Below are positions 2,958 to 32,442 of a stretch of DNA of 64,000 nucleotides, piece after piece. Source of the stretch: Dendronephthya gigantea (Eukaryota); contig NW_021163311.1 in NCBI RefSeq assembly GCF_004324835.1, forward strand, positions 10,208 through 74,207. The letters are read 5' to 3'. The notes beneath the pieces are model-generated. The model was not told the origin of the DNA and did no database searches. It worked only from the letters and a program-made list of their open reading frames with translations. Both the position numbers and the translations under genes were made by a program. Numbering within the stretch: the first letter of the stretch is position 1; each line of letters begins with the position of its first letter.

Positions 2958-4598
2958 ATGGCTTCATATATACAAGGCTATGATGAAGAAAGGTTTGTGG
3001 ACAAAATCAATCAAAATTTTCATTGCCAGATTTGCTTTAATGTCTTGAAAGAGCCGGTTATGTGTTCGAGAAACCAGCATTCGTTTTGCCGTTGTTGTAT
3101 TACGAAACATCTGGAAAATTCTCAAACATGTCCAACGTGTGCTGATGAACTGACCGCAGAGACTTTATCCGAACCGAATAGAATGGTTAAAGATTTTTTG
3201 AATGAATCAAAAATTCGTTGCGTTTACATCGACAGAGGTTGTCAAGAAGTTGTAGAATTACAGCATCTTGACCGCCATGAAGATACATGTGGATATACAC
3301 CAGCCGTTTGTACAAACCAAGGCTGTGGTTTAATTGTCAACAAGCGTGATCTTATTCACCATGAAAGTGAAGTCTGTGAATTCCGAAAGTTGAAGTGTCA
3401 CTCGTGCCGAGAAATGACGAAAACTTTCGCAGATATGGAGGAAAGAATGGCGAATATCGAGAAGAATATGGTAACAAATAAAACAGTTGAAACTAAAATA
3501 ACCAATTTGGAGAAAAATATTGCCACTGTTGCGAATAATATGGAGAAAAACACCGCAGATATAAAAGTAGATATGGAAGGAAAACACGAAGCGGTTAACA
3601 ACAAAGTCGATGGATTGAAAACAGCTTTGGTCAGAGCTTTTGATGATATGAAGGACGTTCTTATCACGATGGAGGGCAAGAAAGTAGAAAACACAAGAAA
3701 AGTAATAAATAGACCAAGTGGTGATAAGGAAAATATAATTGTTGCTGGAGGTTTATTGACTAGCTCTGTAGAGATGTTTAACTGGCGTCAAAGAACATGG
3801 TCGCCATTACAATCAATGCCAAAGAAACGTTTGGTAGCAACTTCATTTATTTATAACAATCATATGACTATAGCTGGGGGTTGCTGTGGTGGGTCTGTCA
3901 TTGTTGATGATATGATTAGAATGAATATTGACCCAAACCTTGATCTCACAACACACTGGAGTGACTGTCCTGTTAAACTACCTGATAAGTTGGAATACCA
4001 CAGCAGTGTGCTGTATAATGATCAGTTGATAGTCTCTGGAGGTCGTAATAAAAATGTTTCATCTGACTTGATGAGAGCAGTCCAGCTTGTTCCTTTCTAT
4101 ACTGTGAAGACCTTATCAAGAATGCCAGAACCTAGACAAGGTCACAGCATGGAAATATTTGATGATAATTTGTTGATAGTTGGTGGAAGTACAACTGACA
4201 ATTACAAAGACAGCCTCAGCAGTGTCGTACTGTACGATATAAAGAAGAATCAGCTGAAACAGTTGTCACCACTGCCGTATGAAGTGAGGCACATGGCAAC
4301 TGTAAGATGGGGAGAAAACATTGTTGTTATTGGTGGCGTTGACAAACATGGCAAGGCATTAGATACAGTTATCATTTACAATGTCAAGACAGAACAAAGT
4401 CACATGCTGCCATCAATGAGATGTAAGAGGTGTGGATGTACTGCAGTTGTTATTGCAAACAACATTGTAGTCCTGGGAGGGAACGGTGAGCGAACAACAC
4501 TGAAGTCAGTTGAAGGTTTCAACTTTGAAAGGTATTCTTGGGAAGAACTTCCAGAAATGTCTGAAGCAAGATACTTGCACACTGCTGTTGTTGCGTGA
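2958..4598 (+). CDS. RING(C3HC4) - TRAF-type zinc finger - coiled coil - 6x Kelch protein, copy 1 (546 aa, intronless)
   Basis: Uninterrupted ATG-to-stop ORF. RING: CQICFNVL..C.RNQHSFCRCCITKHL..CPTC. TRAF-type zinc fingers: CVYIDRGC..HLDRHEDTC, CTNQGCG..HHESEVC. Coiled coil is K/E-rich with heptads. Six Kelch blades carry GG doublets: IIVAGG, MTIAGG, LIVSGG, LLIVGG, IVVIGG, IVVLGG. Confidence 0.9.
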   Translation: MASYIQGYDEERFVDKINQNFHCQICFNVLKEPVMCSRNQHSFCRCCITKHLENSQTCPTCADELTAETLSEPNRMVKDFLNESKIRCVYIDRGCQEVVELQHLDRHEDTCGYTPAVCTNQGCGLIVNKRDLIHHESEVCEFRKLKCHSCREMTKTFADMEERMANIEKNMVTNKTVETKITNLEKNIATVANNMEKNTADIKVDMEGKHEAVNNKVDGLKTALVRAFDDMKDVLITMEGKKVENTRKVINRPSGDKENIIVAGGLLTSSVEMFNWRQRTWSPLQSMPKKRLVATSFIYNNHMTIAGGCCGGSVIVDDMIRMNIDPNLDLTTHWSDCPVKLPDKLEYHSSVLYNDQLIVSGGRNKNVSSDLMRAVQLVPFYTVKTLSRMPEPRQGHSMEIFDDNLLIVGGSTTDNYKDSLSSVVLYDIKKNQLKQLSPLPYEVRHMATVRWGENIVVIGGVDKHGKALDTVIIYNVKTEQSHMLPSMRCKRCGCTAVVIANNIVVLGGNGERTTLKSVEGFNFERYSWEELPEMSEARYLHTAVVA

Positions 4599-5149
4599 AC
4601 AATATGTAAGGTATTAAGTGAAAACTCCTAACATATTATGAACAATTAAAATTAACTATAAGATTTTCACAAAGTTATAGAAATAGATTGTAGCATTCTA
4701 AGTTGATTGTCAGACATATACTGATTTGTATTTTTGTGATTGAATTTAAATTGAGTCAGTTTTTAGAATTATATATTAAAGAACAATAACAAATCTGTGA
4801 AATAAATATTTTCATTGAGGAAGGTTTAAAATGAAACATCAAATAAAAGATTTCAAACAATAGGTAGGTGCATGAGTGAAAAAAATTTGATTAAATATTG
4901 ACCATGTTGGATCAAAGTTATTAGTTTCTATTAACTGCGGTTTGGATTAAAAAATTCAACTTTCTAGAAGATAAATATTTCTGAGAGAAACGTAAAATGA
5001 AAGGGTAAACTTACGATGTTTCAGAGCATGTGATGAGGGAATATTTCTGATGTTAGATTTCAACATTGATAACGGTGCCTGTTCATCTCTCCATGATGTT
5101 CCCCACATTTGAAATAAAATTCCTTGAAAGAACAAGAAGTTTGTGATGA

Positions 5150-5292
5150 CCTACTTTAGTATTTTACCGTATAATGTCAGGTAATTTTACTCATCAGTGG
5201 AAGAGTACTGTCAGTTAATAAGTTAACAAACTAATATCTGTCAGTGTCTCTTGTTAACCCATTAGTTGCAATGCACCTAGATGTGACCCACT
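5150..5292 (-). repeat. Single diverged monomer of the 136-bp satellite (inverted orientation)
   Basis: Reverse complement of ..tgacagtactcttccactgatgagtaaaat..taggtcacatctgggtgcattgcaagctaatgggttaacaagagacact. Confidence 0.7.
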
Positions 5293-5739
5293 ATTGTATT
5301 TTAGGTCTAATAGGTGGATAACTTACAGCTGTTTTTCCCTGACAGTTTGTATTGGATTCACATTGTCCCTGCATTCGGCCTTTGATCAATACATCGTCCC
5401 AACCATTTGGACCCTTGCAAGAAACCATAAATATTGTGTAAACAAGATGTTTGTTGGCATTCAAAAGCTTTCACAGGAAGCTTGTAAACAAGTTGTAACA
5501 ATGTCAACATTTTATAAAGTCTAAATATAAATCTGCTGCAGATTTTTTACAAGTTGTTTATAAGGAAACAGTAAATACCTGTGATAGAACAAAGCTTCCT
5601 TCCTTGCAATTTGAACATCGACATCGCAATTTTCCTTGTGTTAGTTTCTTGCAAGTTTTACAATAAACAAAGAAGAAACTTTGCTTGCCTGAGATGAAAG
5701 AGTACAAAAAGTTTGGATTATTAAAGGAGCCCTGGTGTT

Positions 5740-6600
5740 AGAGAGATGAGCTTATTAGAAAGAGAGAGGCCTAATATTAGAGAGAGAGGGGCTTATTAGA
5801 GAGAGAGAGGGGCTTATTAGAGAGAGAGGGGCTTTTTAGAGAGAGAGGGGCTTATTAGAGAGAGAGGGGCTTTTTAGAGAGAGAGGGGCTTATTAAAGAG
5901 AGAGGGGCTTATTTGAGAGAGAGTGGTTTATTAGGGAGAGAGGGTGGGTCTTCATGGATGAAGTATAATATGATTAGGGGGGAAGGCAGGGTAGAGAACC
6001 CTCTACCCAGGGTTTCTCCATGAGGAAAATGCAAGGGTATCAAGCTGGGGATAGGAGTTTATTGGAGATAGACAATTAGAGAAGTGGTACAGTACTGTGT
6101 TAGAGGACATCCAGGTAAGGGGGTATGGGCAAGGGTGGGTTGGGTTAATTGGAAAAAGGGGTTTTAGAGAGGAGGCATATTAGAAAGGGCATGCTAGTAG
6201 GGAAGGGTATAGGGGATTGGCTAGAGAGGGTTAATTAGAGAGGGAAATAAGGAAAGAGGTACATTAGGGAGGGGCATACTATTAGGGAAGAGAATAGAGA
6301 ATAATTTGAGGGTTAATTAGAGAGGAATATTGGAGAAGAGGTACATTAGGGAAGGGCATAATCATGACAGAGGGGAATAGAGTGATTTGAGGGTTATTTA
6401 GAGATGGCTATTGAAAGGATATTTTATAGAGAACAAACCAGAGAAAGGGTTATTGGAAAAGAGGTGTATTAGACAGGATTGCAATACAAGGAACAGAAAT
6501 TATTATAGTGGATTAACTAGAGAGAGGTTTATCAGGAAAGAGGTTTATCAAATCAGGTCATATCAGAGAGGGAGAGGAACGAGGGTGAACATAGCGGGAA
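5740..6600. repeat. Purine-rich satellite; includes the ~19-bp unit gagagagaggggcttatta x~10 at 5745-5935
   Basis: Strand-asymmetric GA-rich composition that parallels 100-1000 one array unit upstream. Confidence 0.8.
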
Positions 6601-6619
6601 CATATTGGAGGTATTTATT

Positions 6620-7564: not shown

Positions 7565-8050
7565 CACTTACCAAAACAAACTTCCTCTTTTTTCCTTGAA
7601 CTTTTCACTCCCTGGCAGTTTTCTGATCTCTTGAAACACTAGAGTGTTTAGTGTTTTCTATTTTGGCAATCAATATAATTCCAGAGATTAGATTAGGATT
7701 AGGGTTAAATTTAGGATTAGGTTTAACCTCTATTTAACAATAAACCTAAGACCAAATCTTAACCCAAATCGTAACATAATCTCAAATAATAAATAAGTCT
7801 GAGGGATAGTTTTTTTAACTCATCAACAGCCAAAACAAACTTCCTCTTTGTCTTGAAATTTCACTCCCTGACAGTTTTCTGATATCACGATAAACTGGAT
7901 GTTTAGCGTCTTTTATGTTGGCAGTATTATTCCATTTAATCCTTCAGATTAGGTTAGGATTAGGGTTAAAATTAGGAATGAGTCTCACCCTATTAAACTT
8001 TAAACCTAAAACATAATCTTAACCCAATTCCTAACATAATCCCAAAGATT
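7565..8050. repeat. Second copy of the 2x245-bp telomere-like repeat element
   Basis: Same TTAGG/CCTAA-bearing duplicated element as 1975-2465. Confidence 0.7.
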
Positions 8051-8545: not shown

Positions 8546-10156
8546 ATGGCTTCATATATACAAGGCTACGATGAAGAAAGGTTTGTGAACCAAATCGATC
8601 GAAATTTTCATTGTCAGATTTGCTTCAACGTCTTGAAAGAGCCGGTTATGTGTTCCAGAAACCAACATTCTTTTTGCCGTTGTTGTATTACGAAACATCT
8701 GGAAAATTCTCAAACATGCCCAACGTGTGCTGATGAACTGACCGTAGAGACTTTGGCCGAAGCACCGCGAATGGTTAAAGATTTTTTGAATGAATCCAAA
8801 ATTCGTTGCGTTTACATCGACAGAGGTTGTCAAGAAGTTGTAGAATTACAGCATCTTGACCGCCATGAAGATACATGTGGATATACACCAGCCGTTTGTA
8901 CAAACCAAGGCTGTGGTTTAATTGTCAACAAGCGTGATCTTATTCACCATGAAAGTGAAGTCTGTGAATTCCGAAAGTTGAAGTGTCACTCGTGCGGAGA
9001 AATGACCAAAACTTTGGCAGATATGGAGGAAAGAATGGCGAATATCGACAAGAATAATGTAACGATTGAAACTAAAATCACAAATTTAGAGAGAAACGTT
9101 GAAAAAAACACGGCAGATATAAAAGCAGATATGGAAGGAAAACTCGAAGCGGTTAAAAACGAAGTCAAAGGATTGAAAACAGCTTTGGTCAGAGCTTTTG
9201 ATGAAATGAAGGACGTTCTCATCACGATGGACGGCAAGAAAGAAGAAAACACAAGAAAAGTAAGAAATAGACCAAGTGGTGATAAGGAAAATATAATTGT
9301 TGCTGGAGGTCATTGGACTAACTCTGTAGAGATGTTTAACTGGCGTCAAAGAACATGGTCGCCATTACAATCAATGCCAAACTATCGTCATGGAGCAACT
9401 TCATTTATTTATAACAATCATATGACTATAGCTGGGGGTTGGTGTGATTTGTCTGACATTGTTGATGATATGATTAGAATGAATATTGACCCAAACCCTG
9501 ATCTCTCAACACACTGGAGTGACTGTCCTGTTAAACTACCTCATAAGTTGAGATACCACAGCAGTGTGCTGTATAATGATCAGTTGATAGTCTTTGGAGG
9601 TGAAAAGAGAAATGTTTCATATGACCTGATCAGAGCAGTCCAGCTTGTTCCTCCCTATACTGTGAAGACCTTATCAAGAATGCCAGAACCAAGGCATGGT
9701 CACAGCATGGAATTATTTGATGATAATTTGTTGATAGTTGGTGGAACTACAACTGGTTATAACAAAGACAACCTGAGCAGTGTCACACTGTACAATATTA
9801 AGAAGAATGAGTTGAAACAGTTGTCACCACTGCCGTATGAAGTGAATCACATGGCAACTGTGAGATGGGGAGACAACATTGTTGTTATTGGTGGTGATGA
9901 CAAACATGGCAACAGATTAGATACAGTTATCATTTACAATGTCAAGACAGAACAAAGTCACATCCTGCCATCAATGAGATGTAAGAGGTTTGGATGTACT
10001 GCAGTTGTTATTGAAAACAACATTGTAGTCCTGGGAGGGTGTGGTCAATTTTTCCCCCTGAAGTCAGTTGAAGGTTTCAACTTTGAAAGGTATTCTTGGG
10101 AAGAACTTCCAGAAATGTCTGAAGCAAGATACTTGCACACTGCTGTTGTTGTGTGA
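8546..10156 (+). CDS. RING-TRAF-Kelch protein, copy 2 (536 aa)
   Basis: Intact ORF with the same domain order as copy 1. It differs mainly in the Kelch loop patches and has a short coiled-coil indel. Confidence 0.9.
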   Translation: MASYIQGYDEERFVNQIDRNFHCQICFNVLKEPVMCSRNQHSFCRCCITKHLENSQTCPTCADELTVETLAEAPRMVKDFLNESKIRCVYIDRGCQEVVELQHLDRHEDTCGYTPAVCTNQGCGLIVNKRDLIHHESEVCEFRKLKCHSCGEMTKTLADMEERMANIDKNNVTIETKITNLERNVEKNTADIKADMEGKLEAVKNEVKGLKTALVRAFDEMKDVLITMDGKKEENTRKVRNRPSGDKENIIVAGGHWTNSVEMFNWRQRTWSPLQSMPNYRHGATSFIYNNHMTIAGGWCDLSDIVDDMIRMNIDPNPDLSTHWSDCPVKLPHKLRYHSSVLYNDQLIVFGGEKRNVSYDLIRAVQLVPPYTVKTLSRMPEPRHGHSMELFDDNLLIVGGTTTGYNKDNLSSVTLYNIKKNELKQLSPLPYEVNHMATVRWGDNIVVIGGDDKHGNRLDTVIIYNVKTEQSHILPSMRCKRFGCTAVVIENNIVVLGGCGQFFPLKSVEGFNFERYSWEELPEMSEARYLHTAVVV

Positions 10157-11050: not shown

Positions 11051-11129
11051 ATATCTGAAAATGAAATTGATTATTCAATTTTAACACTCTCTATGAATGA
11101 CCGCCCTGCAAGTCTTAAAAATGCCACTA

Positions 11130-12065
11130 TTGGCAAGATAGGGCAAGATAGAAGAAAACACAAGAAAAGTAAGAAATAGACCAAGTGGTGATAAGGAAAA
11201 TATAATTGTTGCTGGAGGTTTAGGAATTAACTCTGTAGAGATGTTTAACTGGCGTCAAAGAACATGGTCGCCATTACAATCAATGCCAAAGGATCGTGAA
11301 GGAGCGACTTCATTTATTTATAACAATCATATGACTATAGCTGGGGGTGACTGTGGTGGGTCTGACATTGTTGATGATATGATTAGAATGAATATTGACC
11401 CAAACCCTGATCTCTCAACACACTGGAGTGGCTGTCCTGTTAAACTACCTGATAAGTTGAGATTCCACAGCAGTGTGCTGTATAATGATCAGTTGATAGT
11501 CTCTGGAGGTGAAAAGAGAAAAGTTTCATCTGACTTGATCAGAGCAGTCCAGCTTGTTCCTCCCTATACTGCGAAGACCTTATCAAGAATGCCAGAACCA
11601 AGACAAGGTCACAGCATGGAAATATTTGATGATAATTTGTTGATAGTTGGTGGAAAAACAACTGACACTCTCAAAGACAACCTCAGCAGTGTCGTACTGT
11701 ATGATGTAAAGAAGAATGAGCTGAAACAGTTGTCACCACTCCCGTATGAAGTGAGTCACATGGCAACTGTGAGATGGGGAGACAACATTGTTGTTATTGG
11801 TGGAATTGACAAACAATGCAAGACATTAGATACAGTTGTCATTTACAATGTCAAGACAGAACAAAGTCACATGCTGCCATCAATGAGATTTAAGAGGTGG
11901 GGATGTACTGCAGTTGTTATTGAAAACAACATTGTAGTCCTGGGAGGGTATGGTGAGGTAGGAAAGCTGAAGTCAGTTGAAGGTTTCAACTTTGAAAGGT
12001 TATCTTGGGAAGAACTTCCAGAAATGTCTAAATCAAGATGGTGGCCCACTGCTGTTGCTGTGTGA
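11130..12065 (+). pseudogene. 5'-truncated RING-TRAF-Kelch copy 3 (Kelch half only)
   Basis: Homology begins mid-gene at ..gaagaaaacacaagaaaagtaagaaatagaccaagtggtgataaggaaaat.., which encodes ..EENTRKVRNRPSGDKENIIVAGG. The spacer hairpin sequence ..gccactattggcaag is fused directly to the gene at the shared ggcaag (microhomology deletion). The RING and TRAF parts are absent. Confidence 0.8.
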
Positions 12066-14605: not shown

Positions 14606-14904
14606 CTTTGATCTGCTAAAATTTAATCTTCTAGCTTGAAATGGCTTTTCATCGATATAATGACCGCACTTATACAGGATGTTTAAAAAAACACAACACT
14701 TAATATTTATGAATATTTTGATACGCTATACGATCTTTTGTGATCAAAACGAAAGTGAATTTCATAAACACTTTGAAGTGGCGTTTTTCTTATTCACCAC
14801 AGCTGTAGATCAATCCACAAGATATCCTGAACCATTTGTGTGTTGATGAAAACTCATTTAGATTGGAATATTATTGCACCGCGAAAATATTCAACTCGAC
14901 TTAG

Positions 14905-15040
14905 ACAAAGTAAAATACTAAAGTAGGTCACATCTGGGTGCATTGCAAGCTAATGGGTTAACAAGAGACACTGACAGATAGTTTTGTTAACTTATTAACT
15001 GACAGTACTCTTCCACTGATGAGTAAAATCATCTGACACG
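14905..15040. repeat. 136-bp satellite monomer abutting the gene-4 promoter
   Basis: ..gacagatagttttgttaacttattaactgacagtactcttccactgatgagtaaaatcatctgacacgattaggaaaa joined directly to tacaaactatttcttgg. Confidence 0.7.
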
Positions 15041-15304
15041 ATTAGGAAAATACAAACTATTTCTTGGTATAAAGTATCTTTTTCTTCGAACTTATTTCCA
15101 TATAATGAAATAAGAAATTCCTTCCAACATAAACACAACCAATTGCAAGTCAGCATTTGAATAGAAGATGCTGAGCTTTTGTCAGGAGACAATAATAATA
15201 ATATAATTTTTTTATATCACGAATTCCTGTCCACAAAACACTCCTTAAACACTTACGGAAGAGATATTTCTCTGCTGTTCTAAACAGATAATTTTGCCGT
15301 AACG

Positions 15305-15443
15305 ATTTGAGAAAATACAAACACAGACTTCTTCAAGAACGAACACTGTATGTATATTCAGTCTATACAGCGAGGTTTATACTACAGAGCGACAAACAAC
15401 ACAGAACTTGCTTTATTATTACGACATAAGAACGACGTGAAAT
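15305..15443 (+). promoter_or_regulatory. Conserved leader of gene 4, type-B upstream
   Basis: Same proximal ~135 bp. The upstream region is type B (cacgaattcctgtccacaaaacactccttaaacacttacggaagagatatttctctgctg..) and the type-A segment is missing. Confidence 0.5.
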
Positions 15444-17074
15444 ATGGCTTCATATATACAAGGCTACGATGAAGAACGCTTCGAGACCAAAGTCAGTAAA
15501 AATTTCCTTTGTCAGATTTGCTTCAACGTCTTGAAAGAGCCTGTCCTGTGTCCGACAAACCAACATTGTTTTTGCCGTTGTTGTATTACGAAACATCTGG
15601 AAAATTCTCAAACATGTCCAACGTGTGCTGATGAACTGACCGTAGAGACTTTGGGCGAACCCCAAAGAATTGTAAAAGATCTTATAAACGAGTTAAAAAT
15701 TCGTTGCGTTTACATCGACAGAGGTTGTCAAGAGTTGTGGAATTACAGCATCTTGACCGCCATGAAGATACATGTGGATACACACCAGCCGTTTGTACAA
15801 ACCAAGGCTGTGGTTTAATTGTCAACAAGCGTGATCTTATTCACCATGAAAGTGAAGTCTGTGAATTCCGAAAGTTGAAGTGTCACTCGTGCGGAGAAAT
15901 GACGAAAACTTTGGCAGATATGGAGGAAAAAATGGCGAAGAATAATGTAAATATTGAAACTAAAATAACAAATTTAGAGAAAAACGTTGCTACTTTTGCG
16001 AATGATATGGAGAAAAACACCGCAGATATAAAAGCAGATATAAAAGCAGATATGGAAGGAAAACTCGAAGCGGTTAACAACGAAGTCAAAGGATTGAAAA
16101 CAGCTTTGGTCAAAGCTTTTGATGAAATGAAGGACGTTCTTATCACGATGGAGGGCAAGAAAGAAGAAAACACAAGAAAAGTAAGAAATAGACCAAGTGG
16201 TGATAAGGAAAATATAATTGTTGCTGGAGATGTAGCAACTAACTCTGTAGAGATATTTAACTGGCGCCAAAGAACATGGTCGCCATTACAATCAATGCCA
16301 GAGGATCGTTATGGAGCAACTTCATTTACTTATAACAATCATATGACTATAGCTGGGGGTGGCTGTGGTTGGCCTGGCATTGTTGATGATATAATTAGAA
16401 TGAATATTGACCCAAACCCTGATCTCTCAACACACTGGAGTGACTGTCCTGTTAAACTACCTGATAAGTTGAGATACCACAGCAGTGTGCTGTATAATGA
16501 TGAGTTGATACTCTCTGGAGGTGATAATGGAAATGTTTCATCTGACTTGATCAGATCAGTCCAGCTTGTTCCTCCCTATACTGTGAAGACCTTATCAAGA
16601 ATGCCAGAACCGAGACAAGGTCACAGCATGGAAATATTTGATGATAATTTGTTGACAGTTGGTGGAAGTAAAACTGACAGTTACACAGACAACCTCAGCA
16701 GTGTCGTACTGTACGATATAAAGAAGAATGAGCTAAAACAGTTGTCACCACTGCCGTATGAAGTGAGTGCTATGGCAACTGTGAGATGGGGAGACAACCT
16801 TGTTGTTATTGGTGGCGTTGACAAACATGGCAAGACATTAGATACAGTTATCATTTACAATGTCAAGACAAAACAAAGTCACATGCTGCCATCAATGAGA
16901 TGTAAGAGGAGAGGATGCACTGCAGTTGTTATTGAAAACAACATTGTAGTCCTGGGAGGATCTGGTGCAGGAGAACTGAAGTCAGTTGAAGGTTTCAACT
17001 TTGAAAGGTATTCTTGGGAAAAACTTCCAGAAATGTCTAAAGCAAGATGGCGGCACACTGCTGTTGTTGTGTGA
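15444..17074 (+). pseudogene. RING-TRAF-Kelch copy 4, disrupted by a 1-nt deletion (true pseudogene or homopolymer assembly error)
   Basis: caagagttgtggaattacagc here against caagaggttgtggaattacagc in gene 5. The ORF splits into 15444-15818 and 15704-17074. The 5' flank and N-terminal half are otherwise identical to gene 5. Confidence 0.6.
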
Positions 17075-19568: not shown

Positions 19569-19867
19569 CTTTGATCTGCTAAAATTTAATCTTCTAGCTT
19601 GAAATGGCTTTTCATCGATATAATGACCGCACTTATACAGGATGTTTAAAAAAACACAACACTTAATATTTATGAATATTTTGATACGCTATACGATCTT
19701 TTGTGATCAAAACGAAAGTGAATTTCACGAACACTTTGAAGTTGCGTTTTTCTTATTCACCACAGCTGTAGATCAATCCACAAGATATCCTGAAACATTT
19801 GTGTGTTGATGAAAACTCATTTAGATTGGAATATTATTGCACCGCGAAAATATTCAACTTGACTTAG

Positions 19868-20003
19868 ACAAAGTAAAATACTAAAGTAGGTCACATCTGG
19901 GTGCATTGCAAGCTAATGGGTTAACAAGAGACACTGACAGATAGTTTTGTTAACTTATTAACTGACAGTACTCTTCCACTGATGAGTAAAATCATCTGAC
20001 ACG
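19868..20003. repeat. 136-bp satellite monomer upstream of gene 5
   Basis: As at 14905-15040. Confidence 0.7.
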
Positions 20004-20266
20004 ATTAGGAAAATACAAACTATTTCTTGGTATAAAGTATCTTTTTCTTCGAACTTATTTCCATATAATGAAATAAGAAATTCCTTCCAACATAAACACA
20101 ACCAATTGCAAGTCAGCATTTGAATAGAAGATGCTGAGCTTTTGTCAGGAGACAATAATAATAATATAATTTTTTTATATCACGAATTCCTGTCCACAAA
20201 ACACTCCTTAAACACTTACGGAAGAGATATTTCTCTGCTGTTCTAAACAGATAATTTTGCCGTAAC

Positions 20267-20405
20267 GATTTGAGAAAATACAAACACAGACTTCTTCAAG
20301 AACGAACACTGTATGTATTTCAGTCTATACAGCGAGGTTTATACTACAGAGCGACAAACAACACAGAACTTGCTTTATTATTCCGACATAAGAACGACGT
20401 GAAAT
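20267..20405 (+). promoter_or_regulatory. Conserved leader of gene 5 (type B)
   Basis: Identical to the gene-4 upstream. Confidence 0.5.
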
Positions 20406-22040
20406 ATGGCTTCATATATACAAGGCTACGATGAAGAACGCTTCGAGACCAAAGTCAGTAAAAATTTCCTTTGTCAGATTTGCTTCAACGTCTTGAAAGA
20501 GCCTGTCCTGTGTCCGACAAACCAACATTGTTTTTGCCGTTGTTGTATTACGAAACATCTGGAAAATTCTCAAACATGTCCAACGTGTGCTGATGAACTG
20601 ACCGTAGAGACTTTGGGCGAACCCCAAAGAATTGTAAAAGATCTTATAAACGAGTTAAAAATTCGTTGCGTTTACATCGACAGAGGTTGTCAAGAGGTTG
20701 TGGAATTACAGCATCTTGACCGCCATGAAGATACATGTGGATACACACCAGCCGTTTGTACAAACCAAGGCTGTGGTTTAATTGTCAACAAGCGTGATCT
20801 TATTCACCATGAAAGTGAAGTCTGTGAATTCCGAAAGTTGAAGTGTCACTCGTGCGGAGAAATGACGAAAACTTTGGCAGATATGGAGGAAAAAATGGCG
20901 AAGAATAATGTAAATATTGAAACTAAAATAACAAATTTAGAGAAAAACGTTGCTACTTTTGCGAATGATATGGAGAAAAACACCGCAGATATAAAAGCAG
21001 ATATAAAAGCAGATATGGAAGGAAAACTCGAAGCGGTTAACAACGAAGTCAAAGGATTGAAAACAGCTTTGGTCAAAGCTTTTGATGAAATGAAGGACGT
21101 TCTTATCACGATGGAGGGCAAGAAAGAAGAAAACACAAGAAAAGTAAGAAATAGACCAAGTGGTGATAAGGAAAATATAATTGTTGCTGGAGATGTAGCA
21201 ACTAACTCTGTAGAGATATTTAACTGGCGCCAAAGAACATGGTCGCCATTACAATCAATGCCAGAGGATCGTTATGGAGCAACTTCATTTACTTATAACA
21301 ATCATATGACTATAGCTGGGGGTTGGTGTGGTGTGTCTGTCATTGCTGATGATATGATTAGAATGAATATTGACCCAAACCCTGATCTCTCAACACACTG
21401 GAGTGACTGTCCTGTTAAACTACCTGATAAATTAATATTCCACAGCAGTGTGCTGTATAATGATCAGTTGATAGTCTCTGGAGGTGATAATGGAAATGGT
21501 TTATCTGACTTGATCAGATCAGTCCAGCTTGTTCCTCCCTATACTGTGAAGACCTTAACAAGAATGCCAGAACCAAGACAAGGTCACAGCATGGAAATAT
21601 TTGATGATAATTTGGTGATAGTTGGTGGAAGTACAATTAGCAGTTACAAAGGCAACCTCAGCAGTGTCGTACTGTACGATATAAAGAAGAATGAGCTGAG
21701 ACAGTTGTCACCACTGCCGTATGAGGTGAGTCTCATGGCAACTGTGAGATGGGGAGACAACATTGTTGTTATTGGTGGCTTTGACAAATATGGCAAATTA
21801 CTAGATACAGTTATCATTTACAATGTCAAGACAGGACAAAGTCACATGCTGCCATCAATGAGATGTAAGAGGAGGGGATGTACTGCAGTTGTTATTGAAA
21901 ACAACATTGTAGTCCTGGGAGGGGAGAGTGAGCAAGCAATGCTAACATCAGTTGAAGGTTTCAACTTTGAAAGGTATTCTTGGGAAGAACTTCCAGAAAT
22001 GTCTGAAGCAAGATTGTGGCACACTGCTGTTGTTGTGTGA
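20406..22040 (+). CDS. RING-TRAF-Kelch protein, copy 5 (544 aa)
   Basis: Intact ORF. Codons 1 to ~300 are identical to copy 4. The Kelch half has diverged. Confidence 0.9.
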   Translation: MASYIQGYDEERFETKVSKNFLCQICFNVLKEPVLCPTNQHCFCRCCITKHLENSQTCPTCADELTVETLGEPQRIVKDLINELKIRCVYIDRGCQEVVELQHLDRHEDTCGYTPAVCTNQGCGLIVNKRDLIHHESEVCEFRKLKCHSCGEMTKTLADMEEKMAKNNVNIETKITNLEKNVATFANDMEKNTADIKADIKADMEGKLEAVNNEVKGLKTALVKAFDEMKDVLITMEGKKEENTRKVRNRPSGDKENIIVAGDVATNSVEIFNWRQRTWSPLQSMPEDRYGATSFTYNNHMTIAGGWCGVSVIADDMIRMNIDPNPDLSTHWSDCPVKLPDKLIFHSSVLYNDQLIVSGGDNGNGLSDLIRSVQLVPPYTVKTLTRMPEPRQGHSMEIFDDNLVIVGGSTISSYKGNLSSVVLYDIKKNELRQLSPLPYEVSLMATVRWGDNIVVIGGFDKYGKLLDTVIIYNVKTGQSHMLPSMRCKRRGCTAVVIENNIVVLGGESEQAMLTSVEGFNFERYSWEELPEMSEARLWHTAVVV

Positions 22041-24515: not shown

Positions 24516-24829
24516 CTTTGATTTGCTAAAATTTAATCTTCTAGCTTGAAATGGCTTTTCATCGATATAATGACCGCACTTATACAGGATGTTTAAAAAA
24601 ACGCAACACTTAATATTTATGAATATTTTGATACGCTATACGATCTTTTGTGATCAAAACGAAAGTTAATTTCATAAACACTTTGAAGTTGCGTTTTTCT
24701 TATTCACCACAGCTGTAGATCAATCCACAAGATATCCTAAACCATTTGTGTGTTGATGAAAACTGATTTAGATTGGAATATTATTCCACCGCGAAAATAT
24801 TCAACTTGACTTAGACAGAGTAAAATACT

Positions 24830-25375
24830 AAAGTAGGTCACATCTGTGTGCATTGCAAGCTAATGGGTTAACAAGAGACACTGACAGATAGTTTTGTTAA
24901 CTTATTAACTGACAGTACTCTTCCACTGATGAGTAAAATCATCTGACATTAGACAGAGTAAAATACTAAAGTAGGTCACAACTGGGTGCATTGCAAGCTA
25001 ATGGGTTAACAAGAGACACTGACAGATAGTTTTGTTAACTTATTATCTGACAGTACTCTTCCACTGATGAGTAAAATCATCTGACATTAGACAGAGTAAA
25101 ATACTAAAGTAGGTCACATCTGGGTGCATTGCAAGCTAATGGGTTAACAAGAGACATTGACAGATAGTTTTGTTAACTTATTAACTGACAGTACTCTTCC
25201 ACTGATGAGTAAATTCATCTGACATTAGACAGAGTAAAATACTAAAGTAGGCCACATCTGGGTGCATTGCAAGCTAATGGGTTAACAAGAGACACTGACA
25301 GATAGTTTTGTTAACTTATTAACTGACAGTACTCTTCCACTGATGAGTAAAATCATCTGACACGATTAGGAAAAA
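24830..25375. repeat. 136-bp satellite, 4 tandem monomers, upstream of gene 6
   Basis: Unit is gacagatagttttgttaacttattaactgacagtactcttccactgatgagtaaaatcatctgacattagacagagtaaaatactaaagtaggtcacatctgggtgcattgcaagctaatgggttaacaagagacact. Confidence 0.85.
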
Positions 25376-25608
25376 TCTAGGTTCATAATGCTGGACCATG
25401 CAGTTTGACTCATTCACTTTGCATACATAGCTCAGTGCGTTATACTCCAGTCCCAGTTCTCTCTCTCAGCTTTCGACATTTTTTAATTTATTTGTCGAAA
25501 CACCGCAGCAAATTCCAAGAATTCCTGACAGCAAATGATGCATTTTATACAAACACTTTAGGAAGAAGAGATATTTGTCTTCATAAACTGATCATTTTGG
25601 AGAAGATT

Positions 25609-25745: not shown

Positions 25746-27380
25746 ATGGCTTCATATATACAAGGCTACGATGAAGAACGCTTCGAGGCCAAAGTCAGTA
25801 AAAATTTCCTTTGTCAGATTTGCTTCAATGTCTTGAAAGAGCCTGTCCTGTGTCGGAAGAACCAACATTGTTTTTGCCGTTGTTGTATTACGAAACATAT
25901 GGAAAATTCTCAAACATGTCCAACGTGTGCTGATGAACTGACCGTAGAGACTTTGACAGAACCAAATAGAATGGTAAAAGATCTTATAAATGAGTTAAAA
26001 ATTCGTTGCGTTTACATCGACAGAGGTTGTCAAGAAGTTGTAGAATTACAGCATCTTGACCGCCATGAAGATACATGTGGATATACACCAGCCGTTTGTA
26101 CAAACCAAGGCTGTGGTTTAATTGTCAACAAGCGTGATCTTATTCGCCATGAAAGTGAAGTCTGTGAATTCCGAAAGTTGAAGTGTCACTCGTGCCGAAA
26201 AATGACGAAAACTTTCGCAGATATCGAGGAAAGAATGGCGAATATCGAGAAGAATATGGTAACAAATAAAACAGTTGACACTAAAATAAAAAATTTAGAG
26301 AAAAATGTTGCCACTGTTGCGAATAATATCGAGAAAAACACGGCAGATATAAAAGCAAATATGGAAGGAAAACACGAAGCGGTTAACAACGAAGTCAGAG
26401 GATTGAAAACAGCTTTGGTCAGAGCTTTTGATGAAATTAAGGACGTTCTTATCACGATGGAGGGCAAGAAAGAAGAAAACACAAGAAAAGTAATAAATAG
26501 ACCAAGTGGTGATAAGGAAAATATAATTGTTGCTGGAGGTGTAGTAACTAACTCTGTAGAGATGTTTAACTGGCGTCAAAGAACATGGTCGCCATTACAA
26601 TCAATGCCAGATCATCGTTGTGGAGCGACTTCATTTATTTACAACAATCATATGACTATAGCTGGGGGTGACCGTGGTAGGCCTGACATTGTTATGACTA
26701 GAATGAATATTGACCCATACCCTGATCTCTCAACACACTGGAGCGACTGTCCTGCTAAACTACCTGAAAAGTTGAGATACCACAGCAGTGTGCTGTATAA
26801 TGATCAGTTGATAGTCTCTGGATGTGCTAATGCAAATTATTCACGTGACTTGATCAAAGCAGTCCAGCTTGTTCCTCCCTATACTGTGAAGACCTTATCA
26901 AGAATGCCAGAACCAAGACAATGTCACAGCATGGAAATATTTGATGATAATTTGTTGATAGTTGGTGGAAGAGCAACTGGGTTTTACAAAGACAACCTCA
27001 GCAGTGTCGTACTGTACGATATAAAGAAGAATGAGCTGAAACAGTTGTCACCACTGCCGTATGAAGTGAGTCAAATGGTAACTGTGAGATGGGGAGACAA
27101 CATTGTTGTTATTGGTGGCCTTGACAAACATTGCAAGTTATTAGATACAGTTATCATTTACAATGTCAAGACAGAACAAAGTCACATGCTGCCATCAATG
27201 AGATGTAAGAGGCAGGGATGTACTGCAGTTGTTATTAAAAACAACATTGTAGTCCTGGGAGGGTGGGGTGAGGAAGGAAAGCTGAAGTCAGTTGAAGGTT
27301 TCAACTTTGAAAGGTATTCTTGGGAAGAACTTCCAGAAATGTCTGAAGTGAGATGGCTGTCCACTGCTGTTGTTGTGTGA
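25746..27380 (+). CDS. RING-TRAF-Kelch protein, copy 6 (544 aa)
   Basis: Intact ORF with the same domains and distinctive loop variants (DRGRPDIVMT, CANANYSRD, RATGFYKDN). Confidence 0.9.
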   Translation: MASYIQGYDEERFEAKVSKNFLCQICFNVLKEPVLCRKNQHCFCRCCITKHMENSQTCPTCADELTVETLTEPNRMVKDLINELKIRCVYIDRGCQEVVELQHLDRHEDTCGYTPAVCTNQGCGLIVNKRDLIRHESEVCEFRKLKCHSCRKMTKTFADIEERMANIEKNMVTNKTVDTKIKNLEKNVATVANNIEKNTADIKANMEGKHEAVNNEVRGLKTALVRAFDEIKDVLITMEGKKEENTRKVINRPSGDKENIIVAGGVVTNSVEMFNWRQRTWSPLQSMPDHRCGATSFIYNNHMTIAGGDRGRPDIVMTRMNIDPYPDLSTHWSDCPAKLPEKLRYHSSVLYNDQLIVSGCANANYSRDLIKAVQLVPPYTVKTLSRMPEPRQCHSMEIFDDNLLIVGGRATGFYKDNLSSVVLYDIKKNELKQLSPLPYEVSQMVTVRWGDNIVVIGGLDKHCKLLDTVIIYNVKTEQSHMLPSMRCKRQGCTAVVIKNNIVVLGGWGEEGKLKSVEGFNFERYSWEELPEMSEVRWLSTAVVV

Positions 27381-27915: not shown

Positions 27916-27954
27916 AAAAAGAAATTGATTATTCAATTTTAACACTGTCCCTCT

Positions 27955-28150: not shown

Positions 28151-28295
28151 CTTACGCAAAAAACAATGGAGTTGTTCTTCTGATAGGTATTCTGTGCCTA
28201 CACTTTCTTTTATTTTTATTGTATTTTTATCTTTACTTGAAACCACGACATGAAATTACCATTTAGACCTAACCCGGGAAGTGACGGGAGTCAAT

Positions 28296-28444
28296 AGTGA
28301 GCTTAAGCAAGTGACGTTTTTGACAACACGTACGTTAACCGGAAGTAAAGTTTTTGTTTTTCACCAATCACAATCCTTGACCCAGTCTTTTCACGTCACT
28401 CATGCCGTTTGTGTTGTCAAAAACGTCACATGCTTAAGCTCACT
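28296..28444. mobile_element. 149-bp MITE with 33-bp TIRs and a 3-bp target-site duplication (AAT); Tourist/PIF-Harbinger-like
   Basis: TIRs are agtgagcttaagcaagtgacgtttttgacaacac .. gtgttgtcaaaaacgtcacatgcttaagctcact. Empty sites in the other spacers read gagtcAATgaccaaat. Here the read is gagtcAAT[element]AATgaccaaat. Confidence 0.7.
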
Positions 28445-28464
28445 AATGACCAAATCATTACTCA

Positions 28465-28990
28465 TTCTGTTTCGAGAAATTCATTATAGTTTAAAATTTA
28501 GTTCAGCCGAATTCATATTAGAGGCGGGAAACTCGTCTTACAAGGTCAAGGAAAACAGGAAACTCGTCTTACAAGGGAAACTCCTCTTAGAAACTCATCT
28601 TAGACGGGAAACTCGTCTGATGTGAATCAGGCCACAGACGGGTTTCTCGTCAGAACTTTCCCGCCTAACTTTCCCGTCTCAACAAACAGTTAATTTGAAC
28701 GGGAACCCTTCTGGACGAGAAACTCGTCTTAAATTCACATTTGGCAGGATAAATCAGACGAGTTTCTGAAATATCAACACGGTCAAGGACGGAACAAGGG
28801 TAAAGCCCGCCGCACAAGAGAGCTATCAGCTGAGCTAACGACCTCGCGAGGCAGTTAACTCAGCCTGAAAACTATCCGCACACGATAGAAACTTGCCTCT
28901 CGAGGCGAATTCCTCACGAAAAACTATCCGCACACGAGAGTAACTTGCTGAGCTAACAGCCTCGCGAGGTCTTTACCTCAGCTACCAGCT
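28465..28990. repeat. GAAACTCGTCT short-repeat cluster plus 52-bp tandem (3 copies)
   Basis: Same module as 13390-13900. Confidence 0.6.
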
Positions 28991-29281
28991 CTCGTGTGAG
29001 GCGGGCTTAACTGAGAAAATAAACAAAATTATTATCGTAATAATCACGATACCCTTTTTAGCATTACCCGACCCATAAAACGTGTAAATTTTATATCCTT
29101 TCCAAGTCATATTAAGACGAGTTTTTGCAATCAACTTTCCTGTCTAAGATGAATTTCCCGTGTCTAATATGAATTTGGTTGTTAATGTGAGAGAGATGAT
29201 ACCTTCGGCTTCCCCGATTCCTTGAATATACAATCCATTGTTATATGGTTTGTTGTTGTTTGAATAAGAACGTGATTTTCG

Positions 29282-29710
29282 TCAGATCTTCGCAGCAAAT
29301 GGTGTCATGACAGAACTCCCTGGTTTGCAAATTATGTCGACACCATTGTGTGTACGAGAGCCTCTGTATAATGATAAATTCACGTTAATTTAATTGTTTT
29401 GTAAGATTATAAGAATATTATCGATTCGCTGTGTTGCTACAAGGTTACATCTGGTCTTACCTTGGTGTTCCGAAATCACCACAACCCTGACTGTCACATT
29501 CACGGATTGAATTTCTACCATTTGAGCTGCAAAGCTGACCAAGTTTAAAACATTCAACCGCATTATCTAGAAAAATAAATCCAGAAAAATACGATGAAGA
29601 ATAACGAAGTGATACTTGAGAATTCTATGAACAAAGATATATATCACAATATGTATTCCAGTACCTGCAAAGACTAGGAATATAACAACGATCTTAACAA
29701 CTCCAAACAT
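29282..29710 (-). CDS. Gene E copy (small secreted Cys-rich protein, 3 exons)
   Basis: Exons 29665-29710, 29461-29566 and 29282-29363. ATG is at 29710. Donor is GTACTG and the 98-nt intron ends ctag. Donor GTAAGA is followed by a 97-nt intron ending tacag. The TGA stop is at 29282-29284. Confidence 0.5.
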
Positions 29711-29999
29711 CTTTGATCTGCTAAAATTTAATCTTCTAGCTTGAAATGGCTTTTCATCGATATAATGACCGCACTTATACAGGATGTTTAAAAAAATGCA
29801 ACACTTAATATTCATGAATATTTTGATACGCTATACGATCTTTTGTGATCAAAACGAAAGTGAATTTCATAAACACTTTGAAGTTGCGTTTTTCTTATTC
29901 ACCACAGCTGTAGATCAATCCACAAGATATCCTGAACCATTTGTGTGTTGATGAAATCTCATTTACATTGGAATATTATTGCACCGCGAAAATATTCAA

Positions 30000-30135
30000 C
30001 TTGACTTAGACAGAGTAAAATACTAAAGTAGGTCACATCTGGGTGCATTGCAAGCTAATGGTTAACAAGAGACACTGACAGATAGTTTTGTTAACTTACT
30101 AACTGACAGTACTCTTCCACTGATAAGTAAAATCA
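30000..30135. repeat. 136-bp satellite monomer upstream of gene 7
   Basis: As at 14905-15040. Confidence 0.7.
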
Positions 30136-30229
30136 TCTGATACGATTAGGAAAAGTCTAGTTTCATGATGCTGGACAATGCAGTTTGACCCAATCACTTG
30201 GCATACATAGCTCAGTGCGTTATACTCCA

Positions 30230-30843
30230 GTCCCCGTTCTCTCTCTCAGCTCGCGATATTTTGAAATTTATTTGCGGAAACACCGCAGCAAATTCCAAGA
30301 ATTCCTGACAGCAAATGATGCATTTTATGCAAACACTTTATAAGCAAGAGATATTTGTCTTCATAAATTGATCATTTTGGAGAAGATTTCGAGAAAATAC
30401 AAACACTTCTTGGTAATATAAAATACAAACTATTTCTTGGTATAAAATACAAACTATTTCTTGGTATAAAGTATCATTTTCATCGAACTAATTTCCATAT
30501 AATGAAATAAGAAATTCCTACCAACATAAACACAACCAATTGCAATTCACTATTTCAATAGGAGATGCTGAGCTTTGTCAGGAGACAATAATAATAATAT
30601 AATTTTTTCATACCACAAATTCCTGTGCACAAAACACTCTTTAAACACTTCAGTACGGAAGAGATATTTCTCTGCGCTTCTAAACAGATAATTTTGCCGT
30701 AGCGATTTGAGAAAATACAAACACAGACTTGTCAAAGAACGAACACTGTATCTATATTCAGTCTATACAGCGACGTTTATACTACAGAGCGACAAACAAC
30801 ACAGAACTTGCTTTATTATTACGACACAAGAACGACGTGAAAT
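30230..30843 (+). promoter_or_regulatory. Composite upstream region of gene 7: type-A segment, then tandem aatacaaactatttcttggtataaa x2.5, then the full type-B segment, then the conserved leader
   Basis: The type-A portion ends ..gagaaaatacaaacac. Type B then follows and ends again with ..gagaaaatacaaacacagac. Confidence 0.5.
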
Positions 30844-32442
30844 ATGGCTTCATATATACAAGGCTACGATGAAGAAAGGTTTTTGGACAAAATCAATCAA
30901 AATTTCCTCTGTCAGATTTGCTTCAACGTCTTGAAAGAGCCGGTTATGTGTTCGAGAAACCAGCATTCTTTTTGCCGTTGTTGTATTACGAAACATCTGG
31001 AAAATTCCAAAACATGTCCAACGTGTGCTGATGAACTTACCGTAGAGACTTTGGCCGAACCACAAAGAATGATAAAAGATTATTTGAATGAATCGAAAAT
31101 TCGTTGCGTTTACATCGACAGAGGTTGTCAAGAAGTTGTAGAATTACAGCATCTTGACCGCCATGAAGATACATGTGGATATACACCAGCCGTTTGTACA
31201 AACCAAGGCTGTGGTTTAATTGTCAACAAGCGTGATCTTATTCATCATGAAAGTGAAGTCTGTGAATTCCGAAAGTTGAAGTGTCACTCGTGCGGAGAAA
31301 TAACCAAAACTTTGGCAGATATGGAGGAAAGAATGGCGAAGAATAACACAACAATTGAAACTAAAATAACAAATTTAGAGAAAAATATGGCGAGAAATAC
31401 CATAGTCGCAGATTTAAAAGCAGATATGGAAGGAAAACTCGAAGCGGTTAACAACAAAGTCGATGGATTGAAAACAGCATTGGTCAGAGCTTTTGATGAA
31501 ATGAAGGACGTTCTTATCACGATGGAGAGCAAGAAAGAAGAAAACACAAGAAAAGTAAGAAATAGACCAAGTGGTGATAAAGAAAATATAATTGTTGCTG
31601 GAGGTGTAGGAACTAACTCTGTAGAGATGTTTAACTGGCGTCAAAGAACATGGTCGCCATTACAATCAATGCCAAAGAGTCGTTATGGAGCGACTTCATT
31701 TATTCATAACAATCATATGACTATAGCTGGGGGTTGGTGTGTTGGGCCTGGCATTGTTGATGATATGATTAGAATGAATATTGACCCAAACCCTGATCTC
31801 TCAACACACTGGAGTGACTGTCCTGTTAAACTACCTGATAAGTTGAGCAGTGTGCTGTATAATGATCAGTTGATAGTCTCTGGAGGTAATAATGGAAATG
31901 ATTCATCTGACTTGATCAGAGCAGTCCAGCTTGTTCCTCCCTATACTGTGAAGACCTTATCAAGAATGCCAGAACCAAGACAAGGTCACAGCATGGAAAT
32001 ATTTGATGATAATTTGTTGATAGTTGGTGGAAGAACAACTGGTAATTACAAAGACAACCTCAGCAGTGTCGTATTGTACGATATAAAGAAGAATGAGCTG
32101 AAACAGTTGTCACCACTGCCCTATGAAGTGGGTGATATGGCAACTGTGAGATGGGGAGACAACATTGTTGTTATTGGTGGTGCTGACAAACGCGGCAAGC
32201 CATTAGATACAGTTATCATTTACAATGTCAAGACAGAACAAAGTCACATGCTGCCATCAATGAGATGTAAGAGGAGGGGATGTACTGCAGTTGTTATTGA
32301 AAACAACATTGTAGTCCTGGGAGGGAAGGGTGAGGGAAGAAAGCTGAAGTCAGTTGAAGGTTTCAACTTTGAAAGGTATTCTTGGGAAGAACTTCCAGAA
32401 ATGTCTGAAGCAAGATGGTGGCCCACTGCTGTTGTTGTGTGA
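30844..32442 (+). CDS. RING-TRAF-Kelch protein, copy 7 (532 aa)
   Basis: Intact ORF. It has a 3-aa in-frame deletion (DKL--SSVLYND) and distinct loop variants. Confidence 0.9.
   Translation: MASYIQGYDEERFLDKINQNFLCQICFNVLKEPVMCSRNQHSFCRCCITKHLENSKTCPTCADELTVETLAEPQRMIKDYLNESKIRCVYIDRGCQEVVELQHLDRHEDTCGYTPAVCTNQGCGLIVNKRDLIHHESEVCEFRKLKCHSCGEITKTLADMEERMAKNNTTIETKITNLEKNMARNTIVADLKADMEGKLEAVNNKVDGLKTALVRAFDEMKDVLITMESKKEENTRKVRNRPSGDKENIIVAGGVGTNSVEMFNWRQRTWSPLQSMPKSRYGATSFIHNNHMTIAGGWCVGPGIVDDMIRMNIDPNPDLSTHWSDCPVKLPDKLSSVLYNDQLIVSGGNNGNDSSDLIRAVQLVPPYTVKTLSRMPEPRQGHSMEIFDDNLLIVGGRTTGNYKDNLSSVVLYDIKKNELKQLSPLPYEVGDMATVRWGDNIVVIGGADKRGKPLDTVIIYNVKTEQSHMLPSMRCKRRGCTAVVIENNIVVLGGKGEGRKLKSVEGFNFERYSWEELPEMSEARWWPTAVVV

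Follow-up and report, generated by a model that had tools for sequence, protein, structure and literature searches.

What keeps short patches of sequence different in almost every copy of a gene that is otherwise nearly invariant? The question is raised by a tandem array of RING-Kelch genes in Dendronephthya gigantea, which lies in a stretch of 64,000 nucleotides (nt) of contig NW_021163311.1 (RefSeq assembly GCF_004324835.1, positions 10,208 to 74,207 of the forward strand). This whole stretch, an AT-rich eukaryotic DNA of about 37% GC, is referred to below as the window. Based on the location of the variable codons, on codon-level tests for selection and on a second array from another assembly, we find that the patches are loops of a Kelch propeller under diversifying selection. 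We give a probability of roughly 60% to the reading that the array encodes lineage-expanded, cytosolic, single-chain RING E3 ubiquitin ligases whose Kelch pocket has been diversified to recognise foreign or parasitic intracellular proteins.

An open reading frame (ORF) listing, combined with tblastn searches with one copy, revealed seven copies on the + strand between positions 2958 and 32442, with a period of 5.0-5.6 kb; neither method found a further copy elsewhere in the window. The copies and their flanks are as follows.

2958..4598, + strand: copy 1, intact, 546 amino acids (aa), Kelch domain from nt 3729 (ORF list, Pfam RING and Kelch, tblastn)
8546..10156, + strand: copy 2, intact, 536 aa, Kelch domain from nt 9287 (ORF list, tblastn)
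11103..12065, + strand: copy 3, 5'-truncated fragment, homology from about 11103, frame open from 11142, first ATG at 11241
15444..17074, + strand: copy 4, full length, frameshifted by the loss of one G at coding-sequence nt 290 (GAGG to GAG)
20406..22040, + strand: copy 5, intact, 544 aa, the reference for residue numbering
25746..27380, + strand: copy 6, intact, 544 aa, Kelch domain from nt 26517 (ORF list, tblastn)
30844..32442, + strand: copy 7, intact, 532 aa, last of the array, Kelch domain from nt 31582 (Pfam, tblastn)
20216..20405, + strand: presumed promoter and 5' untranslated region (UTR), about 190 nt, kept upstream of all six full-length copies with about 5% pairwise difference
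32443..32691, + strand: presumed 3' UTR, with AATAAA about 244 nt past the stop, at the same position in copies 1-4 and 7

An earlier note on this DNA, written from the letters alone, had described seven intronless paralogues. The number of copies and the single uninterrupted ORF of each coding sequence stand, but only five copies are intact, encoding 532-546 aa, while one carries a 1-nt frameshift and one is a 5'-truncated, Kelch-only fragment. The frameshifted copy 4 has either become a pseudogene very recently or been misread in sequencing. Copy 3 retains the end of the helical region and the whole Kelch domain, in which it has loop variants of its own, and its unit has lost about 3 kb, comprising the rest of the spacer and the 5' half of the gene including the RING and zinc fingers. 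Approximately 245 nt 3' of the stop codon is conserved in most units and, since both the 5' and the 3' flanks are conserved, each unit looks like a complete transcription unit.

The domains of the encoded protein were delimited in copy 5.

20472..20588, + strand: C3HC4 RING (aa 23-61; Pfam, invariant columns, TRAF6 match)
20667..20855, + strand: TRAF-type zinc fingers (aa 88-150; Pfam, invariant columns, TRAF6 match)
20790..21113, + strand: long helices (aa 129-166 and 171-236; DSSP assignment of the AlphaFold model at low predicted local distance difference test (pLDDT) score, alignment)
21174..22037, + strand: six-bladed Kelch propeller (aa 257-544, 288 residues; AlphaFold pLDDT above 90, Foldseek)

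All of 124 family members have the RING ligands C23, C26, C36, H41, C44, C47 and C58, and at least 90% of them have C61; the zinc-finger ligands C88, C95, H107, C111 and C118, C123, H135, C140 are likewise invariant in all 124. Pfam zf-C3HC4_2 scored 32-35 bits in copies 1 and 7 (cut-off 27) and 25 bits in copy 5, and Kelch_1 passed its curated cut-off (E=1e-28 to 1e-32), with six GG-containing blades. The profile search proposed in the earlier note thus bore out the C3HC4-type RING and the Kelch repeats, but zf-TRAF fell below threshold. Despite this, the best match to aa 5-151 among all sequences in PDB was the RING and zinc fingers of TRAF6 (E=1e-11), taking in the QGYD-E-F motif ahead of the RING, and PF02176 is annotated on many homologues; the array proteins carry two complete zinc fingers and one half finger. 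The two long helices, predicted by AlphaFold2 at pLDDT 40-69, probably form a coiled coil. Within the helical linker (aa 160-200, e.g. 20880-21005 in copy 5) the length varies through in-frame gain and loss of repeats of the 'EKN/ADIK' type, and protein length spans 532-546 aa in the window and 513-583 aa among homologues. In the AlphaFold2 model, built with an alignment of 124 family members, the propeller superposes on those of KLHL12, KLHL20, KLHL3 and Keap1 with a TM score of about 0.9 and a root-mean-square deviation of about 2 Å (Foldseek). No Pfam match at E<=0.1 to MATH, BTB, BACK or B-box was obtained in the array proteins, Pfam did not report in them the C-terminal USP8-binding domain of NRDP1 or PDZ domains, and the propeller matched Kelch models and structures instead of WD40. 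Cumulatively, the RING and Kelch profiles, the TRAF6 match and the predicted six blades agree with the architecture proposed in the earlier note, namely a TRAF-like N-terminus with Kelch in place of MATH.

To locate the variability, loops were defined from the strands of the AlphaFold model before substitutions were inspected. Among the seven copies, columns with at least four different residues numbered 14/57 in the BC loops, 6/54 in the DA loops, 0/10 in the AB loops, 0/33 in the CD loops and 1/134 in the strands, i.e. 20 of 111 columns in BC/DA loops vs. 1 of 177 in all other Kelch codons (Fisher p=2e-8). BC and DA loops occupy one face of the propeller, which forms the substrate pocket in Keap1 (PMC4668279) and KLHL20 (PMC6720452). 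In the predicted fold, the hypervariability therefore appears restricted to the ligand-binding face, as had been proposed, and all the variable patches quoted earlier were found in the copies as quoted. They are listed here for copy 5.

21324..21344, + strand: blade-2 BC loop (aa 307-313), with a different nucleotide variant in each of the seven copies
21195-21200, 21264-21275, 21426-21440, 21486-21503, 21579-21584 and 21630-21653, + strand: further variable patches
21729-21734, 21780-21800, 21873-21875, 21924-21941 and 22014-22022, + strand: further variable patches, continued

The patches are of equal length, their flanks are invariant and identical between copies at the nucleotide level, and only three small in-frame gaps occur in the Kelch alignment; an alignment or indel artefact, which the earlier note had named as a possible undoing of its claim, is ruled out. 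In 119 homologues from other assemblies the same positions had the highest entropy, namely those immediately following every GG doublet and every conserved Arg, and in most of the 12 loops nearly every protein had its own variant (e.g. 112 distinct BC4 variants in 119 proteins).

Selection was assessed with codon site models implemented in our own scripts, not in PAML or HyPhy, using one tree, single-nucleotide steps and 6-7 sequences per array. The pairwise Nei-Gojobori ratio of nonsynonymous to synonymous divergence (dN/dS) was 0.8-2.3 over the whole Kelch domain and 0.23-0.7 in the N-terminal half. For the Kelch domain of the window copies, the one-ratio model (M0) gave an overall dN/dS (ω) of 1.39, and the log-likelihood (lnL) rose from -2546.96 under the nearly neutral model M1a to -2452.05 under the selection model M2a (2ΔlnL=189.8), which placed 11% of codons at ω≈17. 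At a posterior above 0.9, 26 sites were identified, 25 of which fall in the BC/DA loops as defined beforehand (P=1e-10); the one exception, residue 361, directly follows the GG of blade 3. The DA-loop class as a whole averages a dN/dS of 0.75, so only particular codons are selected. The same code applied to the N-terminus returned ω=0.35 and 2ΔlnL=10, as for a module under purifying selection, with a few helical-linker sites flagged by M2a (169, 197, 216). Because synonymous rates vary, we also ran a FUBAR-like dual-rate grid with independent synonymous (α) and nonsynonymous (β) rates at each site; with the threshold P(β>α)>0.9 it yielded 15 sites, all in BC/DA loops. A tree-free check pointed the same way: about 1.6 kb of alignable spacer differs by 1-4% among units 4-7 and the Kelch coding sequence by 5-10%, so that the coding divergence is 2-4 times that of the intergenic spacer. 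Further, the selected sites are enriched family-wide in Tyr (3.3-fold), Trp (2.7-fold) and Arg (2.5-fold), and also in His and Gly, a composition usual for binding hot spots.

The pattern recurs outside the window. Database searches returned 1595 matches, the best 120 of which were all full length and 67-76% identical, and a search of representatives at 50% identity gave 274 clusters at E<1e-30, including approximately 20 full-length ones at 35-46% identity. Same-strand arrays were found in DNA fetched from two assemblies of the European Nucleotide Archive (ENA).

ERZ25073802 ctg16705, same strand: array reaching from about 159 kb to about 394 kb (over 230 kb)
ERZ25073802 ctg16005, same strand: array
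ERZ25067548 ctg104429, same strand: array of four genes and a Kelch-only fragment like copy 3

In six genes of ctg16705 the Kelch domain gave 2ΔlnL=64, with 7.7% of sites at ω≈10, and all 12 selected sites were in BC/DA loops; nine of these coincide with sites selected in the window (P=8e-5 within loops). The N-terminus of the same genes gave 2ΔlnL=1.65 and ω=0.24. Across four arrays in three assemblies the loop-class dN/dS was 0.9-1.5 and that of the N-terminus 0.2-0.37, while non-loop Kelch codons stood at 0.4-0.5, except in the window, where the value was 1.37 at very low synonymous divergence (dS). With selected sites clustered in the loops at ω>1, instead of being scattered evenly at dN/dS at or below 1, the M2a comparison, the 15 dual-rate sites and the replication in another assembly together corroborate the diversifying selection that the earlier note had read from the patches.

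Could the copies instead be redundant duplicates in decay, with neutral drift accumulating in tolerant surface loops? Such relaxed constraint would agree with the two defective copies out of seven, with the tolerance of surface loops to substitution and with the average dN/dS of the DA loops. Neutral decay, however, cannot yield ω≈10-17 at specific codons, nor can it make coding sequence diverge 2-4 times as much as the adjacent spacers. Moreover, five ORFs of 532-546 aa remain intact, the N-terminus is held at ω=0.2-0.35 with its zinc ligands kept throughout the 124 sequences (C61 in at least 90%, the others invariant), the AB and CD loops on the other face have 0/43 columns with four or more residues, and the same sites are selected in another species. 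We regard relaxed constraint as largely refuted and essentially excluded.

Gene conversion, too, acts on the array, as in a tract shared by units 4 and 5.

19863..21323, + strand: about 1.43 kb of unit 5 identical to 14900-16360 of unit 4 save one deleted G

This tract comprises about 540 nt upstream plus nt 1-917 of the coding sequence and ends exactly at the start of the blade-2 BC patch; from the first codon of that patch onwards copies 4 and 5 differ at 62 of the last 717 nt. It marks a recent gene conversion or unequal crossover and, given identity in all but the deleted G, the frameshift of copy 4 must be younger than the conversion, or a sequencing error. The pairwise homoplasy index (PHI) test detected recombination both in the Kelch domain (p=0.0045) and in the whole coding sequence (p=0.0005). 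The N-terminal halves fall into two deep types (copies 1, 2 and 7 vs. copies 4, 5 and 6), the neighbour-joining tree of the Kelch domain is nearly a star, and the sets of copies that share a loop variant differ from loop to loop. Gene conversion is thus active, so the history of the copies is a mosaic and single-tree tests are approximate.

Keeping in mind this exchange among copies, we considered whether loop variability is mainly mutational, arising by targeted hypermutation, multi-nucleotide mutation or short-tract conversion from diverged paralogues, with the high dN/dS as a by-product. The synonymous sites of the window lend this some support: dS is 4-5 times higher in BC/DA loops (0.15) than in the remaining Kelch domain (0.03), several synonymous variants fall in a codon adjoining a hypervariable codon, and many hypervariable codons differ at two or three positions; the detectable recombination and the changing partners in loop-variant sharing would also fit. 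The loop excess is not an artefact of Nei-Gojobori path averaging, which was ruled out, as it holds at amino-acid-invariant columns and at 4-fold sites. On the other hand, it was not significant in two other arrays, A2 and A3 (p=0.2 and 0.5), and in distant comparisons 4-fold-site divergence was 0.26 in loops vs. 0.18 in the framework, where a hot spot would give a roughly fivefold gap. With no replication in A2 and A3 and only this small gap, an intrinsic mutational hot spot in the loops is unsupported. When synonymous diversity was plotted against distance from selected codons, only the adjacent codon was clearly raised in the window, and A2 was trendless. Further, 15 loop sites keep β much above α even with site-specific synonymous rates, most loops have seven unique variants, so that shuffling among these copies is not the main source, and pure mutation would neither enrich Tyr, Trp, Arg and His nor keep the frames open. 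A mainly mutational origin is therefore, in our judgement, quite unlikely.

Framework synonymous divergence (about 0.02) equals the spacer level, and the loop value (about 0.09) is near that of the N-terminal half; in our reading, conversion or unequal crossover has recently homogenised this array, or amplified it. The loops would either have escaped homogenisation, with converted loops selected against, or have been re-diversified by selected point changes together with short conversions carrying neighbouring silent changes. Promoter-less, 5'-truncated Kelch-only copies (11103-12065 in the window; 6638-7264 of L010) recur in the arrays of two assemblies, both with intact reading frames and their own loop variants, and could be dead fragments or conversion donors. 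An extension of the latter idea is germline or somatic cassette diversification, in which the framework would provide homology anchors, short-tract conversion would move loop cassettes among hundreds of paralogues, and Kelch-only fragments such as copy 3 and that of L010 might act as donors by analogy with chicken pseudo-V genes. The mosaic sharing of loops, the silent changes beside hypervariable codons, the recombination and the recurrent Kelch-only copies speak for it, whereas most variants of a loop occur in only one of the seven copies and other arrays did not replicate the excess of synonymous changes; we hold it to be very unlikely. If true, octocorals would possess a combinatorial intracellular recognition repertoire.

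In the other assembly, the arrays are interspersed with ORFs for hAT/ZBED-type transposase and for LINE-type reverse transcriptase plus endonuclease (L005, 12917-14983; L009, 13601-21578), and transposons may contribute to array remodelling.

We return to the reading that selection has diversified the pocket of an expanded ligase family against intracellular targets. No signal peptide or membrane segment was seen in the proteins, the sequence of which starts MASYIQGYDEERF, so they are most likely cytosolic, and intracellular parasites would therefore be the most plausible drivers, as for TRIM5, TRIM22 and finTRIM (PMC2657112). In the mechanism that we propose, the RING and zinc fingers would recruit an E2 enzyme and catalyse ubiquitin transfer, by analogy with TRAF6, the helical region would drive oligomerisation, and the Kelch propeller would serve as the target-recognition module, each pocket binding a different target. 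The array would grow and turn over by tandem duplication, unequal crossover and gene conversion, while diversifying selection would keep altering some 25 BC/DA-loop codons predicted to line the canonical Kelch pocket; as a result of this recurrent re-making of loops, each paralogue would have a different pocket. Viruses, intracellular microbes and possibly transposon products would be the targets, and their binding would trigger signalling or degradation through ubiquitin, in the manner of TRIM5 and finTRIM. What the analysis shows is the architecture, the conserved catalytic ligands, where the variability lies, and that positive selection, gene conversion and expansion of the family have taken place; E3 activity and oligomerisation, like the kind of ligand and a role in immunity, are inferred.

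The array proteins can be compared with several known systems. Like TRIM5alpha, TRIM22 and finTRIM, the array proteins join an N-terminal RING E3 module, probably a coiled coil, and a C-terminal recognition domain, and have undergone lineage-specific tandem expansion. Positive selection in finTRIM falls mainly on a few surface loops of that recognition domain (PMC2657112), and the selection on the array proteins is similarly focused on few recognition-domain loops. Unlike TRIM and finTRIM proteins, they have no detected B-box, their RING and zinc fingers are TRAF6-like, and their recognition domain is Kelch and not B30.2/SPRY; the host genome is moreover of octocoral type, and an antiviral function here is only putative. 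Compared with TRAF6, to whose RING and zinc fingers aa 5-151 align best, QGYD-E-F motif included, they have a long helical region in the position of the TRAF-N coiled coil, but they differ in having two complete zinc fingers plus a half finger, with Pfam zf-TRAF below its cut-off, and, as against the TRAF family at large, in the absence of TRAF-C/MATH, replaced by the Kelch propeller. The nearest architectural precedent is TRAF7, likened here by architecture alone, with the difference that the array's propeller is Kelch and not WD40; TRAF7 is, moreover, conserved and low in copy number, and is not known as a hypervariable multigene family. In TRAF7 a TRAF-type N-terminus is joined to a WD40 propeller that replaces TRAF-C (PMC12387233).

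The likeness to the KLHL proteins (Keap1, KLHL12, KLHL20, KLHL3) lies in the six-bladed Kelch and in the hypervariable positions, which map to the BC/DA pocket loops. Unlike KLHL proteins, the array proteins share only about 20% identity with them in the Kelch domain and have no BTB or BACK domain, so no Cullin-3 dependence is expected, and ligase activity would be built in via the RING. The F-box, MATH-BTB and F-box-Kelch families of nematodes and plants, said in work by Thomas in Genome Res in 2006 to be under adaptive evolution, offer a further parallel. These adaptor families are large, unstable and arranged in tandem, with positive selection confined to the substrate-binding domain, and pathogen targets have been proposed for them; they are, unlike the array proteins with their single-chain RING, adaptors of Cullin ligases in other phyla and in other domain combinations.

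Among the matches listed, the only homologues with names belonged to the octocoral Paramuricea clavata, with automatic labels that disagree with one another (RING finger 151-like, i.e. RNF151; NRDP1, i.e. RNF41; kinase). More distant P. clavata subfamilies are named TRAF6-like and PDZRN3-like, and a query with a 35%-identical member again gave P. clavata names only. The NRDP1, RNF151 and PDZRN3 labels evidently reflect RING and zinc-finger similarity alone, because the domains specific to those families were not reported. A literature search, incomplete in coverage, found no paper describing the architecture, the expansion or the selection pattern in corals or cnidarians, and none of the terms Kelch, TRAF, RING and ubiquitin occurs in the paper on the P. 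clavata genome. New here are the host lineage and the joining of Kelch to a TRAF6-like RING and zinc-finger module; expanded E3 families with a hypervariable recognition domain are known.

Several observations weigh against our interpretation. Only five of the seven copies are intact. Any immune or restriction role is argued from analogy, the placement of the BC and DA loops on the same face comes from strand topology and published Kelch structures with no measured distances, AlphaFold confidence is low in the N-terminal half, and both zf-TRAF (21-23 bits, cut-off 27) and Sina_ZnF are under the curated Pfam cut-offs. Synonymous variation at amino-acid-invariant columns is more frequent in loops (14/59) than elsewhere (7/132; p=0.0006), and part of the loop divergence therefore reflects history or mutational input instead of selection alone. 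Finally, recombination breaks the single-tree assumption of the codon models and can inflate such tests, a concern that the near-star tree, the dual-rate result and the spacer comparison reduce without removing it.

The window also contains repeats and a second, unrelated tandem array. The spacer DNA at the start of the window (1-2000) is strongly skewed towards G over C, with a GC skew of 0.36 in the first 2 kb, and purine-rich tandem repeats of 19, 82 and 90 nt lie in the skewed spacer DNA (303-670, 5740-5944 and 6226-6417). The spacers of units 1 and 2 share a duplicated element of about 260 nt (1977-2452 and 7571-8046). A 138-bp satellite occupies part of the unit-6 spacer (24744-25457) and recurs as a block of about 3 kb 3' of the array (36570-39581); satellites of 114, 77 and 80 bp (33361-33731, 34026-35089 and 35886-36439) help to fill the 7 kb from copy 7 to the next gene. 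On the - strand, the ORF 39633-39971 resembles the first coding exon of an alanine-glyoxylate/serine-pyruvate aminotransferase (AGXT-like). Its best homologues, 84-86% identical, are in two ENA assemblies on contigs that also carry RING-Kelch genes; where both positions were read, the distance to the family members exceeds 300 kb in one assembly and is about 30 kb in ERZ25067548 ctg104429, in which exon and genes share a strand although in the window they do not. An old shared neighbourhood of the exon and the RING-Kelch genes is suggested by this arrangement, and suggested only. The second array extends from 40900 to 62900 with a period of about 4.16 kb and comprises four kinds of small ORF (106-150 aa) with signal-peptide-like N-termini, in three to four copies each and on alternating strands, for which no Pfam families were found.

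42529, 50780, 54974 and 59236, + strand: second-array ORFs
45265, 49422, 53587 and 57847, - strand: second-array ORFs
47390, 51638, 55817 and 59992, - strand: second-array ORFs
48021, 52176 and 56448, + strand: second-array ORFs

The ligands could instead be rapidly co-evolving endogenous partners: a matching expanded host family, self/non-self (allorecognition) determinants of colonial corals, reproductive proteins, or proteins of the resident microbiome or symbionts. Positive selection on a pocket does not name its ligand, colonial cnidarians show allorecognition, and the RING-Kelch array has the array of small signal-peptide proteins as its neighbour. Adjacency to genes for secreted proteins is, however, not evidence of interaction, and no partner family was identified; moreover, the RING-Kelch proteins have neither signal peptide nor membrane segment, so direct allorecognition at the cell surface is improbable. 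Endogenous partners are, all told, a possible but rather unlikely explanation.

With a predicted pocket that differs in essentially every paralogue, the family is a concrete candidate for a large octocoral repertoire devoted to recognition or restriction inside the cell. Such a repertoire would be convergent with vertebrate TRIM5 and finTRIM and with the F-box and MATH-BTB families of nematodes and plants. It offers defined residues for mutation, domains for ligand fishing, and loci to follow in the gorgonian disease and heat-mortality studies under way. The array is, besides, a clean case from nature in which selection and gene conversion both operate on stretches of 10-30 bp inside a single domain.

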